64,000 nt of DNA from contig CAZZPE010000007.1 of NCBI GenBank assembly GCA_964655855.1, positions 12,341 to 76,340 on the forward strand, given 5' to 3'. Made by a program: the position numbers and the translations under genes. Each line of letters opens with the position of its first letter. The stretch's first letter is position 1. The DNA comes from an uncultured Bifidobacteriaceae bacterium (lineage in GTDB: Bacteria > Verrucomicrobiota > Verrucomicrobiia > Limisphaerales > UBA11358). Of the stretch, positions 24,369 to 31,605 are shown in pieces. The notes beneath the pieces are model-generated. The model saw only the letters and a list, made by a program, of their open reading frames with translations. It searched no databases and had not been told where the DNA came from.

Positions 24369-24435
24369 AACCGGCGGAAACTAAAGCGTGAAAAATGCGC
24401 GCCCGCAAGAAAATTAAGAATGCATCAATGCAGCG

Positions 24436-24468
24436 GTCACAGAACCGCACCGTGACATCATAAGCCAT
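24436..24468 (-). pseudogene. ~30-bp remnant of a four-helix-bundle (23S rRNA IVS protein family) gene
   Basis: 24436-24463 matches 26877-26904 at 27 of 28 positions (gtcRcagaaccgcaccgtgacatcataa). It encodes YDVTVRFCDR, as in the intact gene 26322..26981. Confidence 0.5.
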
Positions 24469-26321: not shown

Positions 26322-26981
26322 TCAACTTTCGATGACCGCCGTGCCTGCTCGCCGCTGGCAGCGTTTCCGGTAGAGCCGTTCCGTGAAACCGCCTTCTTTT
26401 TCAAAGGCAGCCGCCTGCGCCGCCACCTGACGGCTCAACAAACTGCTGGCCACCATGATGAGCGCCAGGGCGCCGTTGGCCGCTATCTCTGGATAGGTGG
26501 GCTGTGTGGACACTGTGGACTGGATGGACTTTTGTTTTTCGCCTCGTCCACCCTGGCCGGTCCGTCCACTCCGTCCATTTTGTCCATGCACCGCCTCCAC
26601 CCAGGCCGCCACGTCATCTGCTGTGGCGGGACGCCGTGCTATCAGATCAGCCCGGCGCGCGTCCTCGCGCGGCCACTGCGGCAGCCCGCGTTGCCGCAGA
26701 AAATCTTCATAATCCAGACGCAGCTCCTCCAGGCTGGCGCGGGCCACGTTCGTGAGCTTGAGTTCCATTTTCTTGGACGTGCCGCTGGCCTGGCTGCCCT
26801 CGGCAATGTTCTGCACGCCCGACCGCGCCGCCTGCACCATCTGGTCGTGGGTGCGGCTGCGCGGAGAAATGTAACGGTCGCAGAACCGCACCGTGACATC
26901 ATAAACCAATTGTGCCACCTGAAAGCTTTTCAACTTCCGATAACCGCCGTGCAGGGGAATCAATTTTTCTGTGTCATTCAT
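26322..26981 (-). CDS. Four-helix-bundle protein (23S rRNA intervening-sequence protein family), long form with suffix domain
   Basis: YRKLKSFQVAQLVYDVTVRFCDRY, QMVQAARSGVQNIAEG and LEELRLDYEDFLRQRGL motifs. The internal linker (about 26500-26590) is built from short tandem repeats (tgtggacac tgtggactg; gtccac/gtccat units). Confidence 0.7.
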   Translation of the reverse strand: MNDTEKLIPLHGGYRKLKSFQVAQLVYDVTVRFCDRYISPRSRTHDQMVQAARSGVQNIAEGSQASGTSKKMELKLTNVARASLEELRLDYEDFLRQRGLPQWPREDARRADLIARRPATADDVAAWVEAVHGQNGRSGRTGQGGRGEKQKSIQSTVSTQPTYPEIAANGALALIMVASSLLSRQVAAQAAAFEKEGGFTERLYRKRCQRRAGTAVIES

Positions 26982-27041
26982 CTATCAGCGCGAAAATGCA
27001 TCCGGCAGAAAGTAGAAGTGGTTGTCACATGCCAAAAGCTT

Positions 27042-29444
27042 CTATTTTCCTGCAATGAGCCGCCGAAAATGAGCTTCTGTCTTCGGTCGCATCGCAATGA
27101 TGTCGTTCTCCAGTTTTTCGATTTTCAAATACTGTGCATCAACCACTTTTTGTCCATCTTCGGTCGGTTTGCTATCTATCAGAGTTTGCACCCGGTCGCA
27201 CGTTCTTACGTATTGATCGCAGGTGTTCACAATGACTCGAACATCATTTTCAATATCTTGTGGCAAATAGATTTTGTTAAGTTCAAAAGTCTGCCAGAAT
27301 TGGTTCACATCAGTTTGAAAGATCTGTTGCCTAGCCCGCAGTTTCTCCATGTTCTTGTCCTCGATAAGAAGGGCGCAATCTTGGTATGAGCCTATAATTT
27401 TAAGGTAGCATGGCCAGATTGCTGATGCCGCCGTCGCCGCTCTTTCCAAATATTTGGCCGACACTCCAGTGCTTGGGTTCGGCCTTAAATGGTCAACCCT
27501 TTTGCATTTAGGACAGGTCACGCTAATTGCTGTTGCCTGTGTCAGAAAAATAAATCCGCAGTGAGAGCACTTGTGTCCCATCTTGCCGTCAAATACTGGC
27601 GCAATGGAAGCAGTTAAAAAATCCCATGCAGAATCGGGAAGCAACAAGAATTCAAATTCCACTTTTTTTCCCGACGTCAATTCAATATAGCCCTTGCCAT
27701 AGCGCTCACTCTCCTTTTCATGGACTTCAAAATTTGGCTTAAATCTCAAAACTTGCTGCCACTCGTGCATGTCCTCGTCGGCTTCGATATTTACTACGGC
27801 TTGCTTTTGGCCAATATTTAACTCTGATGAAACAGGCACAATTCCGCTCCCTTTTATCAGCTCATCTGGCTTGAGCGCCACTGCTACTCGGCGAATTCTC
27901 ACTACCTTGCTTCCAAAATTTACCGCTTTGATGGTAAGAAGCCCCTGCCTTGTATTGGTATTTTCCAATGCCAAACTTGCCGTAACTTCCAATTTGCTGC
28001 CATGATTTGTGCGTTCTGTTCCGCGTCTCGGATTGAGGGTTTGCTTTTTGAATTTCCGTTCTTCGTAGATTAGAAACCTGTTTAACCTTGAAAGTTGCTG
28101 ATTACCCAATTCGTTCAATGAAGTGATTGCGTGCGGCAATTTCAATTTCTTTGAAGCAAAGGCATAAAGGTCAGAATCGGCGAATCCCAGCGATTTTGAC
28201 CTTGGCCAAATTCCTTTTAGTTGTGCAGTTCGGAATTTTTCGGGGTCAGCGTTCCGTAGTCTTGAATTCTTGCTGGCACGCCATTGGCGAAGATAACTAA
28301 TACCCGCCTCCGCCTTCTCTCGGGGAAGTTCTTTATAGGTTGTGAGGCCAAATTCCGCATTAAAGTCTCCCCAAACCCTTGCGTATGCCTTGCCCGTGTT
28401 GCCGCCAGAGACAGTAAGGCGCTCGACAATTTCGTCAACAATTTGCCTTAACTGCCTGGCTGTTTCAGGAGCAATGTGCTGTGGCCCGGGCGAGAACACG
28501 ACCCGCCGTGATGCAGTAGATTTTGTCCCGATCACGATGTCACCTGAACCGGAATGCACAATCTGAACATGGCTTGAATGCTCATTAAGCGCAGGCACCG
28601 TTTTTAGCGGAGTGCCTGTTTCTACACGTTGCAAGGCGGCTTGCTCGGCAGCAGCTTTCCACTGACATAGAAGGGGCGCTGTATATCGCGCCTCGTCGTT
28701 GTCGATAAGCTTTGCGCAGTTTTGGCAGAGCCAGATGCCATTTTGGATTGAAGAGCGATCTACTTGAGACATGCTCGCGTCGTAGCGCGGTCCGCCATGT
28801 GCCGCAGCAGCGATATGTGCCGCGACCCCGACATTGATTGCCTTTCTCGGATTTGTGTGGGGTCCGGTCGTGGGGCATTTGCACGACGGATTTGAACATA
28901 GGAATCCGACGCGCTTTGCCAAGATGTCTTTAACTTTTTGCTGGAAGTCATCTCGCGTATCTCTATCTAGAACGATCTCCTTCTTTGTGGCCGCCTGCCA
29001 ACCCGGTATCCCTGGAGAGTCCAACCGTAGCGTATTTCCGCTTCGGCAAGCTTCCAAGAGCTTTGCATACTCCTGCTCGTTGTTCGGAAGGCGCCAGTTG
29101 ATGTAAAGGAATTGTGCCAGGGAGCCTTTGATTGGAGCGTCGTCAAGCCGCAACGGAATGAAACGGCGGTCCTTATTCAGCGGGTCACGAAACCTGAACG
29201 TGCCCAATTCCAATTGTGCCCAATCAGACCCAAACGCATTTTCCGACATGCAAAGCACCAACACACGCGATCGTTCTAGCGCTTCCTCAATCTTCGCTGG
29301 GATGCTATCCCCAGGTTTGATTTGCTCCTCGTCCAGCCACACGCGCACGCCGTCCTTCTTCAAACGCGCGGCCAGTTCGCGCACCACTGGCTTATCCTTC
29401 GTGCTGTGACTCAAGAAAACATCGAATTGGTATTCGTCTGGCAT
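27042..29444 (-). CDS. TIR domain - HNH nuclease - large uncharacterised C-terminal region (800 aa)
   Basis: aa 6-118 is TIR (FDVFLSHSTKDK, VLVLCMSENAFGSDWAQLELG). aa 183-250 is an HNH/His-Me finger (CSNPSCKC, VAAHIAAAAHGGPRYD, NGIWLCQNCAKLIDND). aa 626-647 is a C4 zinc ribbon (CSHC...CPKC). The DNA is visibly AT-richer than its flanks. Confidence 0.8.
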   Translation of the reverse strand: MPDEYQFDVFLSHSTKDKPVVRELAARLKKDGVRVWLDEEQIKPGDSIPAKIEEALERSRVLVLCMSENAFGSDWAQLELGTFRFRDPLNKDRRFIPLRLDDAPIKGSLAQFLYINWRLPNNEQEYAKLLEACRSGNTLRLDSPGIPGWQAATKKEIVLDRDTRDDFQQKVKDILAKRVGFLCSNPSCKCPTTGPHTNPRKAINVGVAAHIAAAAHGGPRYDASMSQVDRSSIQNGIWLCQNCAKLIDNDEARYTAPLLCQWKAAAEQAALQRVETGTPLKTVPALNEHSSHVQIVHSGSGDIVIGTKSTASRRVVFSPGPQHIAPETARQLRQIVDEIVERLTVSGGNTGKAYARVWGDFNAEFGLTTYKELPREKAEAGISYLRQWRASKNSRLRNADPEKFRTAQLKGIWPRSKSLGFADSDLYAFASKKLKLPHAITSLNELGNQQLSRLNRFLIYEERKFKKQTLNPRRGTERTNHGSKLEVTASLALENTNTRQGLLTIKAVNFGSKVVRIRRVAVALKPDELIKGSGIVPVSSELNIGQKQAVVNIEADEDMHEWQQVLRFKPNFEVHEKESERYGKGYIELTSGKKVEFEFLLLPDSAWDFLTASIAPVFDGKMGHKCSHCGFIFLTQATAISVTCPKCKRVDHLRPNPSTGVSAKYLERAATAASAIWPCYLKIIGSYQDCALLIEDKNMEKLRARQQIFQTDVNQFWQTFELNKIYLPQDIENDVRVIVNTCDQYVRTCDRVQTLIDSKPTEDGQKVVDAQYLKIEKLENDIIAMRPKTEAHFRRLIAGK
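28695..28898 (-). other. HNH nuclease-coding segment of 27042..29444
   Basis: aa 183-250: Cys pairs CxxxxCxC and CxxC bracket AHI...GG...N. Confidence 0.7.
29091..29429 (-). other. TIR domain-coding segment of 27042..29444
   Basis: aa 6-118, including the candidate catalytic Glu79 in SDWAQLE. Confidence 0.75.
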
Positions 29445-29456
29445 TGATTTGTTCTG

Positions 29457-30434
29457 CTAGGACGCCTTTTTCAAAAACACATTGTCGCGGTGGAATGCGA
29501 GAAATTCCCGTTGCGGTTCGGCAAAGCTGCCGACGTTGACGACGCGATCCGTGATGATGCCCATTTTGTTCATGGATTCTTCGTGAGCCACCGGTGAGAT
29601 AAGCAATTCGCCGCCGTTTTCAAAGGAAATAAAGCCGCGGTCAAACAGGTGGTCTATGGTCGGCGTCAGCAGCAGGCCGTTGCCCGCAAACAGCCGCTCG
29701 CGGTTGTCTGATTCCCGCCACGGTTTGATATGGCTGGCAATCAAATGTTCGGGCCGGTCCACCCGCGTGACGCGACAGAAATGTTCGATGCGCGCGACAT
29801 TTTGACGGAACAAGCCCTGTCCGCGCCGGGCTTTGATGAGCGCCTGCTTTTCGGTGTCGGGCAACTGGCGGTCGGCGGAAATCTGCTCACACTCGTGCTC
29901 TTCCCATTCCACGATGCCGCGCAATTCCGGCAGCGGCGTCTCCGCCGTTTCGGAAATCTGGACGCCCTGAATGATTCCCAGCAATTCCGGCGAGGCGAGT
30001 TGCGCGACGACCAGCGCCATTGGCCGCTGGATTTGCGCGAGATAGACGCCTTGGTTGCCGTAGCCATTGGCGCGAATGGGCGAATAGCGTTCGGGCAACG
30101 TTGGCGCGATGGCGTGCATGTGTTGCGTAGGCAGAATCGGCTCGGTGAATTTCTGGAAATCAATATCTACCCTCCAGCCAACTTCGTTCCATGCCTGTCC
30201 GATGTGACCGAATTCATCCGGTCGCGGCGAGGTGTAACAATGCGTGCGAGCCATGCCGAAGCCTTGAACCGCGCCATCGGCAAAGGAATAAACAATGTCG
30301 CCGGGCGCGACTTCGCGCATAGTTTCGTAAAACGGATTGGTTTGGTCGTTGCGCTTGCGCTTGGGCGACCAAATGTATTTTCCGAAGAACTCATGTCGGA
30401 AGGTCTGACTGTGATTGACCCACCAGAAGTTCAT
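29457..30434 (-). CDS. Putative modification-dependent (type IV-like) restriction endonuclease: N-terminal PUA/EVE-like reader domain plus C-terminal HNH_2 nuclease
   Basis: The likely start is MNFWWVNHSQ at 30434 (the ORF extends to 30464). The C-terminus RRGQGLFRQNVARIEHFCRVTRV...LIASHIKPW...NGLLLTPTIDHLFDRGFISF matches the HNH_2 pattern. N-domain: IWSPK...PGDIVYSF..GAVQGFGMA. It lies 12 bp upstream of the TIR gene. Confidence 0.7.
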   Translation of the reverse strand: MNFWWVNHSQTFRHEFFGKYIWSPKRKRNDQTNPFYETMREVAPGDIVYSFADGAVQGFGMARTHCYTSPRPDEFGHIGQAWNEVGWRVDIDFQKFTEPILPTQHMHAIAPTLPERYSPIRANGYGNQGVYLAQIQRPMALVVAQLASPELLGIIQGVQISETAETPLPELRGIVEWEEHECEQISADRQLPDTEKQALIKARRGQGLFRQNVARIEHFCRVTRVDRPEHLIASHIKPWRESDNRERLFAGNGLLLTPTIDHLFDRGFISFENGGELLISPVAHEESMNKMGIITDRVVNVGSFAEPQREFLAFHRDNVFLKKAS

Positions 30435-30649
30435 TTCATTTGTGGTCCCCTGACATCCGCACAACTGCCGATGGAGCCTTTGCCAAGGTCAAACGCCCGG
30501 ACGGTTTCAGTTGCCGCCGGTTCCGCTTTTTCCTTCGGGATGTTGTCTTGCATATCCAGGTTCCTGGATTTTGAGGCCGTCAAGAGGACCGGCCCGCCTG
30601 TTTGATTGTCCGGCGATGCTACGCCTGTGTCCCCGGTCCGGCAATGGCT

Positions 30650-30727
30650 TTTTTGTGGCAGAGGGCATCCGTGGGCGAGGGGAGTTGCGGGATGTCGGAG
30701 CCGAACTCACGTCGGCTGCCACGAAAT
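30650..30727. repeat. Solo copy of the head of the 99-bp repeat unit
   Basis: ttgtggcagagggcatccgtgggcgaggggagttgcgggatgtcggagccgaactcacgtcggctgccacgaaat is near-identical to 30886-30957. Confidence 0.8.
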
Positions 30728-30739
30728 GAGGTCACTGCA

Positions 30740-30850
30740 AAACCCCTGTAGCGGCGCTCTGTGAGCGCTGAAAGGAAGTAAATTTTCGAGAAAATCACGG
30801 CGGTCACAGACCGCCGCTACAAGAACCGCCGCTACAAGAACAGGGCGGGT
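30740..30850. repeat. REP-like inverted repeat plus a 15-bp tandem duplication
   Basis: ctgtagcggcgctctgtga (~30747-30765) pairs with tcacagaccgccgctacaa (~30796-30814) as an imperfect inverted repeat. It is followed by ccgccgctacaagaa x2. Confidence 0.6.
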
Positions 30851-30911
30851 TTTGGAGAGGTCTCATTTTGTGTTCTTTGGCTTATTTGTGGCAGAGGGCA
30901 TCCATGAGCGA

Positions 30912-31306
30912 GGGGGGTTGCTGGATGTCGGAGCCGAACTCACGTCGGCTGCCACGAAATCATCAAAACCCGCCATTTTCAAGGTTCGGGCGCATTTCAG
31001 GCCGGGAAACGGGAGTTGCGGGATGTCGGAGCCGAACTCACGTCGGCTGCTACGAAATCATCAAAACCCGCCATTTTCGAGGTTTGGGGCGCATTTCAGG
31101 CCGGGAAATGGGAGTTGCTGGATGTCGGAGCCGAACTCACGTCGGCTGCCACGAAATCATCAAAACCCGCCATTTTCAAGGTTTGGGGCGCATTTCAGGC
31201 CGGGAAACGGGAGTTGCGGCTGTCGGAGCCGAACTCACGTCGGCTGCCACGAAATCATCAAAAACCCGCCATTTTCGAGGTTTGGGCGCATTTCAGGCCG
31301 GGAAAC
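30912..31306. repeat. Tandem array, 4 copies of a ~99-bp unit
   Basis: The core gatgtcggagccgaactcacgtcggctgc starts at 30924, 31022 and 31121; a 5'-variant copy (ctgtcggagcc...) sits at ~31219. Units are near-identical throughout, with no unique spacers. Each unit has a small hairpin (agccga...tcggct). Confidence 0.85.
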
Positions 31307-31309
31307 GGC

Positions 31310-31605
31310 ATTTCATCAATTTGGATTGCGTCCAAACAATGTCGGTTTGTCCTTTCACCCATTCGTTCTGCCTTTCCGGCGGGGCGTTTGACTCCTTCAT
31401 CAAATCGTCGTGTCCCGGCATCAAGTCGTTGTGCCTCCAACGGGCATCGCTTTGATTTTCCGTCAATTCGTTCAACCTTGGAACAACATCGTCTTGTCCC
31501 TGCATCAAATCGTTTTGCCTCTGAACAATATCGGTTTGTCCTTTCATCAAATCGTTTTGCCTTGAAACAATATCGTTTTGCCCCAACGCAAGACCGGATT
31601 GCCTG
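31310..31605. repeat. Array of ~13 degenerate 21-bp repeats (alternating 42-bp pattern) upstream of FN3 gene A
   Basis: Plus-strand units are of the type aacaatatcggtttgtccttt / catcaaatcgttttgcctctg. All six frames are open across it. Confidence 0.85.

Follow-up and report, generated by a model that had tools for sequence, protein, structure and literature searches.

Effectors of the cyclic-oligonucleotide-based antiphage signalling system (CBASS) and of Pycsar carry TIR, HNH or transmembrane (TM) heads joined to a common C-terminal domain. In the TIR-SAVED and TIR-STING effectors of CBASS a control domain lies C-terminal to the TIR head, and in Cap5 an HNH nuclease is fused to SAVED. Effectors of both the TIR and HNH types are activated through induced oligomerisation in characterised systems. 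ThsB of the Thoeris system is a TIR protein that responds to a phage protein. The TIR protein SpbK of ICEBs1 itself responds to a phage protein (PMC8880864). We have analysed a protein of 800 amino acids (aa) that combines TIR and HNH domains with an uncharacterised C-terminal region. In the list of open reading frames (ORFs) it lies on the minus strand at 27042-29444 of a 64,000-nucleotide (nt) stretch of contig CAZZPE010000007.1, which we call the window. All coordinates below refer to this stretch.

The TIR-HNH protein shares several features with these systems. Its HNH domain is of the Cap5 subtype (PADLOC 1e-14 to 1e-16), its TIR head precedes a proposed C-terminal control region as in TIR-SAVED and TIR-STING, and one of its C-terminal domains, module D, is spread over TIR, HNH and TM heads in the manner of the CBASS effectors. 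Unlike these it has neither SAVED nor STING, there is no CD-NTase nearby, and TIR and HNH are present in one polypeptide. Its TIR_2 domain is similar to the models of ThsB and of PADLOC PDC-S66, and like ThsB, SpbK and PDC-S66 it is of the type encoded by a stand-alone gene in defence islands, but it has no C-terminal module related to those of ThsB or SpbK. We rejected membership of Thoeris, as there is no ThsA in the window, and a SIR2 protein encoded beside the relative P0020 is PDC-S65, not ThsA. Module C is matched in both sequence and structure by phage ORF6C regulators, i.e. the CI-like repressor of phage Gregale and anti-repressors of the Bro-N/ORF6N-ORF6C type. Unlike those regulators it has no DNA-binding domain, and is fused behind TIR and HNH in a cellular gene. 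The integrated-decoy nucleotide-binding leucine-rich repeat receptors (NLRs) of plants provide a parallel in concept, with no homology, in that a pathogen-type domain (here phage ORF6C) may act as bait. However, the plant proteins have an NB-ARC/STAND ATPase that is missing here, and the bait function is hypothetical in our case.

The TIR-HNH protein is known in kind as a TIR-effector defence protein, while its control modules are novel. We tentatively propose that aa ~278-800 form the control part of a single-polypeptide defence protein of the abortive-infection type in Verrucomicrobiota. The region has no catalytic fold and its modules are folded and conserved, which argues for a control role. 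The TIR head accepts alternative cassettes and module D is common to TIR, HNH and membrane-helix heads, and so a role for the tail modules in trigger recognition or activation would fit, though it is unproven.

The gene was also found in an independent assembly. Logan contig SRR6182865 spans 26924-29606 at 99.96% identity, with Q334R as the sole substitution, and this rules out an assembly chimera as the origin of the gene. The TIR domain occupies aa 1-134 (29043..29444), and matches Pfam TIR_2 at aa 9-130 with a score of 100 bits (E = 1.5e-28). The PDC-S66 and ThsB-type TIR models of PADLOC match as well, and a PADLOC SAVED_TIR match is confined to the TIR part (aa 8-81). The motif W75-x3-E79 (W75-A-Q-L-E79) is present, and by comparison with bacterial TIR NADases E79 is presumably the catalytic glutamate of a predicted activity. 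The HNH domain follows at aa ~166-277 (28614..28949). It is matched by PADLOC models for PDC-M68A (1.4e-24, aa 166-277), the CBASS 'Effector Endonuclease' (6.8e-16) and SAVED_HNH (2.7e-14); taken together these HNH models cover aa 163-277, the SAVED_HNH models only aa 165-269. The match to Pfam HNH_2 is weak. Compared with the relatives P0002 and P0003 the HNH domain is 58-59% identical, as against 87-90% for TIR and module D, and the gene is therefore a mosaic.

The original prediction had treated aa 251-800 as one uncharacterised C-terminal region. Four modules do lie within it, but its first 27 residues (aa 251-277) complete the HNH domain, and the remainder is not a single block but a set of separately shuffled modules joined by linkers. 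We modelled the region by AlphaFold2 in two parts, aa 281-472 and aa 470-800. Both models have a mean predicted local distance difference test (pLDDT) score of ~80, the linkers alone scoring low. No enzymatic domain was found within aa 278-800 using Pfam, NCBIfam, PADLOC, PHROGs and PDB sequence profiles, or by Foldseek against the PDB. The region is likewise neither disordered nor poorly conserved, with pLDDT ~80 outside the linkers and ratios of nonsynonymous to synonymous substitution rates (dN/dS) of 0.08-0.25.

The HNH domain is connected to module C by a glycine-rich linker (aa 278-322, 28479..28613). Its motif VHSGSGDIV.G.K...F.PGPQHI is nearly invariant in the alignment of module C homologues, yet it is modelled as disordered with pLDDT <56. 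The PG..HI end of the motif aligns with the repressor of phage Gregale. The motif itself corresponds to aa 290-322 (28479-28577), and a similar motif is found ahead of module D in P0017 and P0026.

Module C (aa 323-470) is predicted to form six helices arranged in two lobes. Lobe 1 is an ORF6C-like unit of three helices (aa 323-397, 28254..28478) with helical pLDDT values of 87-92, while the three helices of lobe 2 (aa 398-470, 28035..28253) have values of 85-96. Lobe 2 always accompanies lobe 1. The helical stretch KAYARVWGDF...YLRQW of the original prediction lies in lobe 1 at aa 352-388 (28281-28391). It had been assigned to no nameable family, but it falls within a match to Pfam ORF6C (PF10552; aa 351-395, E = 3.6e-7) whose score of 30.6 bits exceeds the cut-off of 22 and which takes in only profile positions 67-111 of 114. 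The homologues P0007, P0012 and P0025 are likewise above the Pfam threshold. Among the PHROGs, phrog_17822 matches aa 287-456 at 2e-14, together with several anti-repressor families. A tblastn search of GenBank phages gave a single match to module C, a CI-like repressor encoded by Gregale, a Mu-like Pseudomonas phage (OR683403, Casadabanvirus). By BLASTP aa 319-464 align with residues 127-266 of that protein at 28% identity (E = 9e-12). The Gregale repressor has HTH_3 at its N-terminus, and its C-terminal part is also above the ORF6C threshold. Foldseek against BFVD matched a 181-aa phage 'ORF6C domain-containing protein' over 179 aligned columns (E = 2e-7), and further matches to lobe 1 were to Bro-N, 'repressor domain' and 'regulatory' proteins at 1.8-5 Å. 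Nothing significant was found by Foldseek against the PDB, where there is no solved structure to match module C, and PDB sequence profiles gave only His-tag artefacts. Nor does either AlphaFold2 model resemble a SAVED structure. The N-terminal partners of ORF6C here are TIR and HNH, with no ORF6N, Bro-N, KilA-N or helix-turn-helix domain. By homology, then, module C is the C-terminal module, not involved in DNA binding, of regulators of phage lysis-lysogeny. A literature search on ORF6C, PDC-M68/PDC-S66 and the C-terminal domain of D3112-type repressors found nothing, with no published function for ORF6C. To our knowledge the function of this domain has never been determined.

Module D (aa 485-606, 27627..27992) is a nine-strand Ig-like beta-sandwich in the AlphaFold2 model, with strand pLDDT values up to 94. 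It includes the beta-rich stretch LLTIKAVNF...VEFEFLL of the original prediction, located at aa 502-601 (27642-27941). Foldseek against the PDB returned only generic sandwiches. The best was ApaG (1xvs; E = 2.9e-4), and others were PapD-like proteins, the FnIII domain of GH3 enzymes and Spo0M; no TM-score exceeded 0.52. PDB sequence profiles found nothing for D, and no similarity to SAVED, CARF, STING or cyclic nucleotide monophosphate (cNMP)-binding domains was detected with PADLOC or by Foldseek against the PDB. When a profile of D plus the zinc ribbon was searched against 1.84 billion cluster representatives there were 81 matches, 66 of them below 1e-10, and a Pfam family covers D in none of the 86 D-containing proteins. 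Given that few clusters match it and Pfam does not cover it, D is an undescribed and rare domain family, a new non-enzymatic family of sandwiches with a predicted Ig-like fold.

Module D is followed by a C4 zinc ribbon (aa 621-653, 27486..27584), modelled as two beta-hairpins. Its cysteines C626, C629, C644 and C647 (CSHC...CPKC) lie exactly at 27504-27569, as had been predicted. There are weak matches to rubredoxin-like and zinc-ribbon entries in Pfam and the PDB. A CxxC...CxxC pattern is present in 23 of the 86 D-containing proteins, always behind D, and both CxxC knuckles are kept by every homologue that possesses the segment. The anticipated helical tail (aa 663-800, 27045..27458) is modelled as a bundle of five long helices spanning aa 663-797 with pLDDT 83-94, and ends in an invariant HFRRLIAG. 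About eight relatives share the tail, the most distant being P0034 at 49-52% identity. It has no match in Pfam or PDB profiles. A natural deletion is found in P0023 (L005, 8001-8930), in which D runs straight into the tail's final 18 residues (INAMRPKIETHFRRLIAGD). This protein retains the invariant C-terminus while lacking the zinc ribbon and most of the helical bundle.

We examined the recurrence of the modules by BLASTP of the full protein against its search hits. They recur at 65-90% identity in differing architectures, and the four are separately shuffled units joined by linkers. TIR is the constant N-terminal head, with 65-90% identity over all the related architectures. Module C is found most frequently among its homologues as TIR-C (~337 aa), and also in TIR-C-extra (445-476 aa), HNH-C (P0007 and P0024) and C-Nudix-like (P0025) forms; in the last, Nudix was read by eye from the sequence, with no Nudix match in Pfam. 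Module D is found as TIR-D (309-313 aa), TIR-D-Zn (349 aa), TIR-D-Zn-tail (493 aa, L018), TIR-X-HNH-D-Zn-tail (807-828 aa) and McrA-like HNH-D-Zn (~280-300 aa), and behind other N-termini as D-Zn(-tail) in P0017, P0026 and P0034. C and D hold the equivalent position behind TIR, where TIR+C, TIR+D and TIR+D+Zn+tail each make a complete protein. The cassettes are thus shuffled behind a nearly constant TIR head, and only the window protein has C and D together.

Six of the 86 D-containing proteins have TIR and seven have McrA-like HNH, while most others have an N-terminal hydrophobic helix. Most are 160-260 aa in length, have no zinc ribbon, and share a conserved N-terminal helix (WGAVTGT...RQW..DR.KLKV). 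In 26 small D proteins there are 81 K/R residues after the helix versus 29 before it, and by the positive-inside rule D would therefore be cytoplasmic. The small-residue helix motif WGAVTGT is seen in about 28 small D proteins of 160-190 aa (e.g. P0051, P0069 and P0077; L010, 5001-5513), and P0051 alone is present on at least 80 contigs.

Selection was estimated at a coarse level, using Nei-Gojobori dN/dS for the window gene versus P0002, P0003 and P0023. The values were 0.08-0.14 for TIR, 0.08-0.12 for module D, 0.21-0.22 for the zinc ribbon and 0.17-0.25 for the tail. The measured modules are under purifying selection and are functional. The family of TIR-HNH and cassette proteins is confined to metagenomes. 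Its few named records are metagenome-assembled genomes of Verrucomicrobiota, and the GTDB representative genomes hold only one family locus.

How might such a protein work? The N-terminal part would supply two killing modules, with TIR as an NADase and the Cap5-type HNH as a DNase. These effectors would be followed, in series, by two recognition or assembly cassettes of alternative type, the helical ORF6C-type cassette C (aa ~290-470) and cassette D-Zn-tail (aa 485-800). At rest the protein would be monomeric or auto-inhibited. On infection a phage component may bind cassette C, cassette D-Zn-tail or both, and a candidate trigger for C would be a phage regulator bearing the same ORF6C domain. 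Binding would lead to oligomerisation, by which a composite TIR active site could be assembled and HNH activated, and as a result NAD+ would be depleted and DNA cut. What we infer is that a ligand is bound, that the protein oligomerises and that both effectors are active. ORF6C is found on both repressors (HTH_3-ORF6C) and anti-repressors (Bro-N/ORF6N-ORF6C), which suggests a homotypic interaction surface. If so, a host TIR-ORF6C protein could act as bait for phage regulators, a purely conjectural idea at this stage. In a broader reading, which we think unlikely, Verrucomicrobiota would keep recombining immune receptors in which TIR is constant and the sensor is swapped. One sensor would be an ORF6C bait captured from phage that co-assembles with regulators of phage lysis-lysogeny and leads to depletion of NAD+; the other would be an undescribed cytoplasmic Ig-like sensor that HNH and membrane-helix effectors also use. 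The two cassettes would then be stacked with two effectors in the single chain of the window protein.

Several observations weigh against the proposal that aa ~278-800 control the effectors in response to phage. No experiment or co-evolution signal ties any of the modules to a phage trigger. D-Zn-tail had no match in GenBank phages, IMG/VR or the GTDB representative genomes, and close relatives of module C were absent from the IMG/VR search. At the coarse level of the dN/dS estimates all values were low, and no module bore the mark of diversifying selection, a frequent feature of sensors. Many of the small TM-D genes have neighbourhoods that are not obviously defensive. The predicted template modelling (pTM) scores of the AlphaFold2 models are 0.45-0.48, so that the inter-domain orientation is undefined. 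In the usual CxxCH motif of HNH the final metal-binding His is Ala here (CQNCAKLID), and the activity of this domain is therefore uncertain. Lastly, the Ig-like sandwich and the helical bundles have generic folds, equally apt as constitutive oligomerisation modules. The phage-sensing role originally proposed for the region stands to the extent that the cassette comparisons fit recognition or regulation and there is no enzyme fold, but oligomerisation modules would give the same pattern.

It could be, although we regard it as rather unlikely, that C, D-Zn and the tail serve constitutively in oligomerisation or localisation and only determine the quaternary state in which TIR and HNH exist, while infection is sensed by TIR, by the HNH_2 protein encoded upstream, or through a change in the NAD or nucleotide pool. 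The generic sandwich and helical folds with only weak structural matches are consistent with such a scaffold, as is the uniform purifying selection (dN/dS 0.08-0.25). ORF6C sits where repressors usually have an oligomerisation domain, and HNH_2 is tightly linked upstream in three lineages. However, a constitutive oligomer of active TIR or HNH would be toxic, and unrelated cassettes (C or D) on one TIR head are easier to understand as specificities than as glues. Moreover TIR+C and TIR+D-Zn-tail genes occur without HNH_2. Quite improbable, in our view, is that ORF6C and the zinc ribbon bind DNA or RNA and thereby steer HNH and TIR as a restriction-like enzyme. Zinc ribbons are frequent binders of nucleic acid, ORF6C is found in transcription regulators, D-Zn is fused to McrA-like HNH domains beside restriction-modification genes, and a type IV-like HNH_2 gene lies upstream. 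Yet the phage regulators bind DNA via N-terminal HTH_3, Bro-N or ORF6N and not through ORF6C, most D proteins carry a membrane helix and no zinc ribbon, and no DNA-binding fold was retrieved for either C or D.

D-Zn might alternatively bind a small signal made by another protein, in the way that SAVED, STING and cNMP-binding domains do, and the TIR, HNH or membrane heads would then be the effectors of a signalling system. The architecture of the CBASS and Pycsar effectors and the Cap5 subtype of HNH speak for a second-messenger receptor of this kind, but no signal generator is conserved beside any relative, several of which are solitary, and D is unlike SAVED, CARF, STING and cNMP-binding domains. 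As a synthase is conserved in no context we rejected this explanation, which we hold to be very improbable. Least likely of all, to the point of being barely credible, is that the tail (aa 663-800) is a third enzyme, a degenerate HEPN-type RNase with R786-x5-H792 as its motif. The tail is all-helical and ~140 aa long, and it has the Rx5H string near an invariant C-terminus, where HFRRLIAG persists unchanged in relatives of as little as 49% identity and in P0023. But R786 is replaced by Gln in P0028, and the motif is found where the last long helix ends rather than where a helix starts. Neither HEPN nor any other family was matched in Pfam, NCBIfam, PADLOC or PDB profiles, and Foldseek gave no helical match in the PDB. 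With an unconserved arginine and no profile or structural support, the HEPN reading was rejected.

If aa ~278-800 do form a control region, an undescribed cytoplasmic Ig-like family would join the control domains on bacterial TIR, HNH and membrane effectors. ORF6C, known only from phage repressors and anti-repressors, would gain a testable role in homotypic interaction. The family would also provide a case of natural cassette exchange in single-gene immune proteins, with a bait possibly taken from phage regulators. In practice, the usefulness of the family is limited by its rarity and by its restriction to uncultured Verrucomicrobiota with no known phage.

The gene lies in a stretch of the window at 26-32 kb that has a G+C content of 52-55%, compared with 58-62% in its surroundings. 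The flanks of the stretch hold housekeeping genes, encoding a sigma-70 factor, OGG, peptidases and uracil phosphoribosyltransferase. The neighbours of the TIR-HNH gene encode HNH_2, four-helix-bundle, methyltransferase-like and zinc-ribbon proteins and a sigma factor, and among them there is no cyclase, CD-NTase or other signal generator, and no ThsA. The upstream HNH_2 nuclease gene (29457..30464, minus strand; 335 aa) ends 12 nt ahead of the TIR-HNH gene. Its product matches Pfam HNH_2 (1.6e-11) and PADLOC HNH (2.1e-24), with a weak resemblance to restriction enzymes dependent on phosphorothioated DNA. Its N-terminal domain of ~190 aa is unassigned to any family.

An 88%-identical copy of HNH_2 lies directly upstream of the TIR-X-HNH-D-Zn-tail gene at L020, and at L001-4, L016 and L019 this place is taken by a different HNH_2 of 34% identity. 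HNH_2 is missing at L018 and L009. An obligatory two-gene system with HNH_2 was rejected, since the genes are linked in three lineages but TIR-D-Zn-tail (L018) and TIR-C (L009) occur alone. We regard HNH_2 only as a frequent neighbour, one that may be a partner in an operon and in function or may simply share the island.

The relatives are found in defence islands and mobile-element contexts, and some are solitary. Genes for a C5 methyltransferase, HNH_2, NERD and Vsr are present at L001, and the P0002 and P0003 loci, where the different HNH_2 also lies upstream, have HicA in addition. The neighbours at L015 are the SIR2 protein (PDC-S65) and bSEFIR, those at L027 an MmeI-type methyltransferase, a PLD-helicase and ArdC, and those at L006 a serine recombinase and RadC. 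The TIR-C gene of L009 and the TIR-D-Zn-tail gene of L018 are solitary amid metabolic genes, and because some relatives are solitary there is no obligatory partner gene. Across the related loci examined there was no conserved partner, cyclase, CD-NTase or ThsA.

Truncated or extra copies of TIR lie beside intact TIR-cassette genes at L005 (6750-7052 and 9013-9108), L022 (2171-2266 and 2925-3302) and L014 (6595-6924). The tandem TIR genes and TIR 5' fragments at several related loci are likely to be substrates for recombination. L005 also has three ORF6N genes and a Y1 transposase close by.

The window contains several repeats near the TIR-HNH gene. Five plus-strand copies of a 38-nt core, GGATGTCGGAGCCGAACTCACGTCGGCTGCCACGAAAT, where chance would give none, fall at 30634-31359 in the space separating the HNH_2 gene from an fn3-like ORF. 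All but the first are part of tandem units of 99 bp. The array is not a CRISPR, as its units resemble each other. It had no Rfam match, nor was there one in a scan of 24-32 kb as a whole. Directly after the 99-bp array, at 31396-31605, is a degenerate 21/42/84-bp tandem repeat with CATCAAATCGTTTTGCC-like units. On the other side of the gene a 41-nt direct repeat with 90% identity is found at 24427-24467 and 26868-26908. The repeat corresponds to the start (5' end) of the four-helix-bundle gene (26322-26981), of which a duplicate lies beside the sigma-70 gene. The four-helix-bundle gene belongs to the 23S rRNA IVP family with a TIGR04258 suffix domain. The two copies of the repeat enclose an ORF for a zinc-ribbon protein of 297 aa and a methyltransferase-like ORF.

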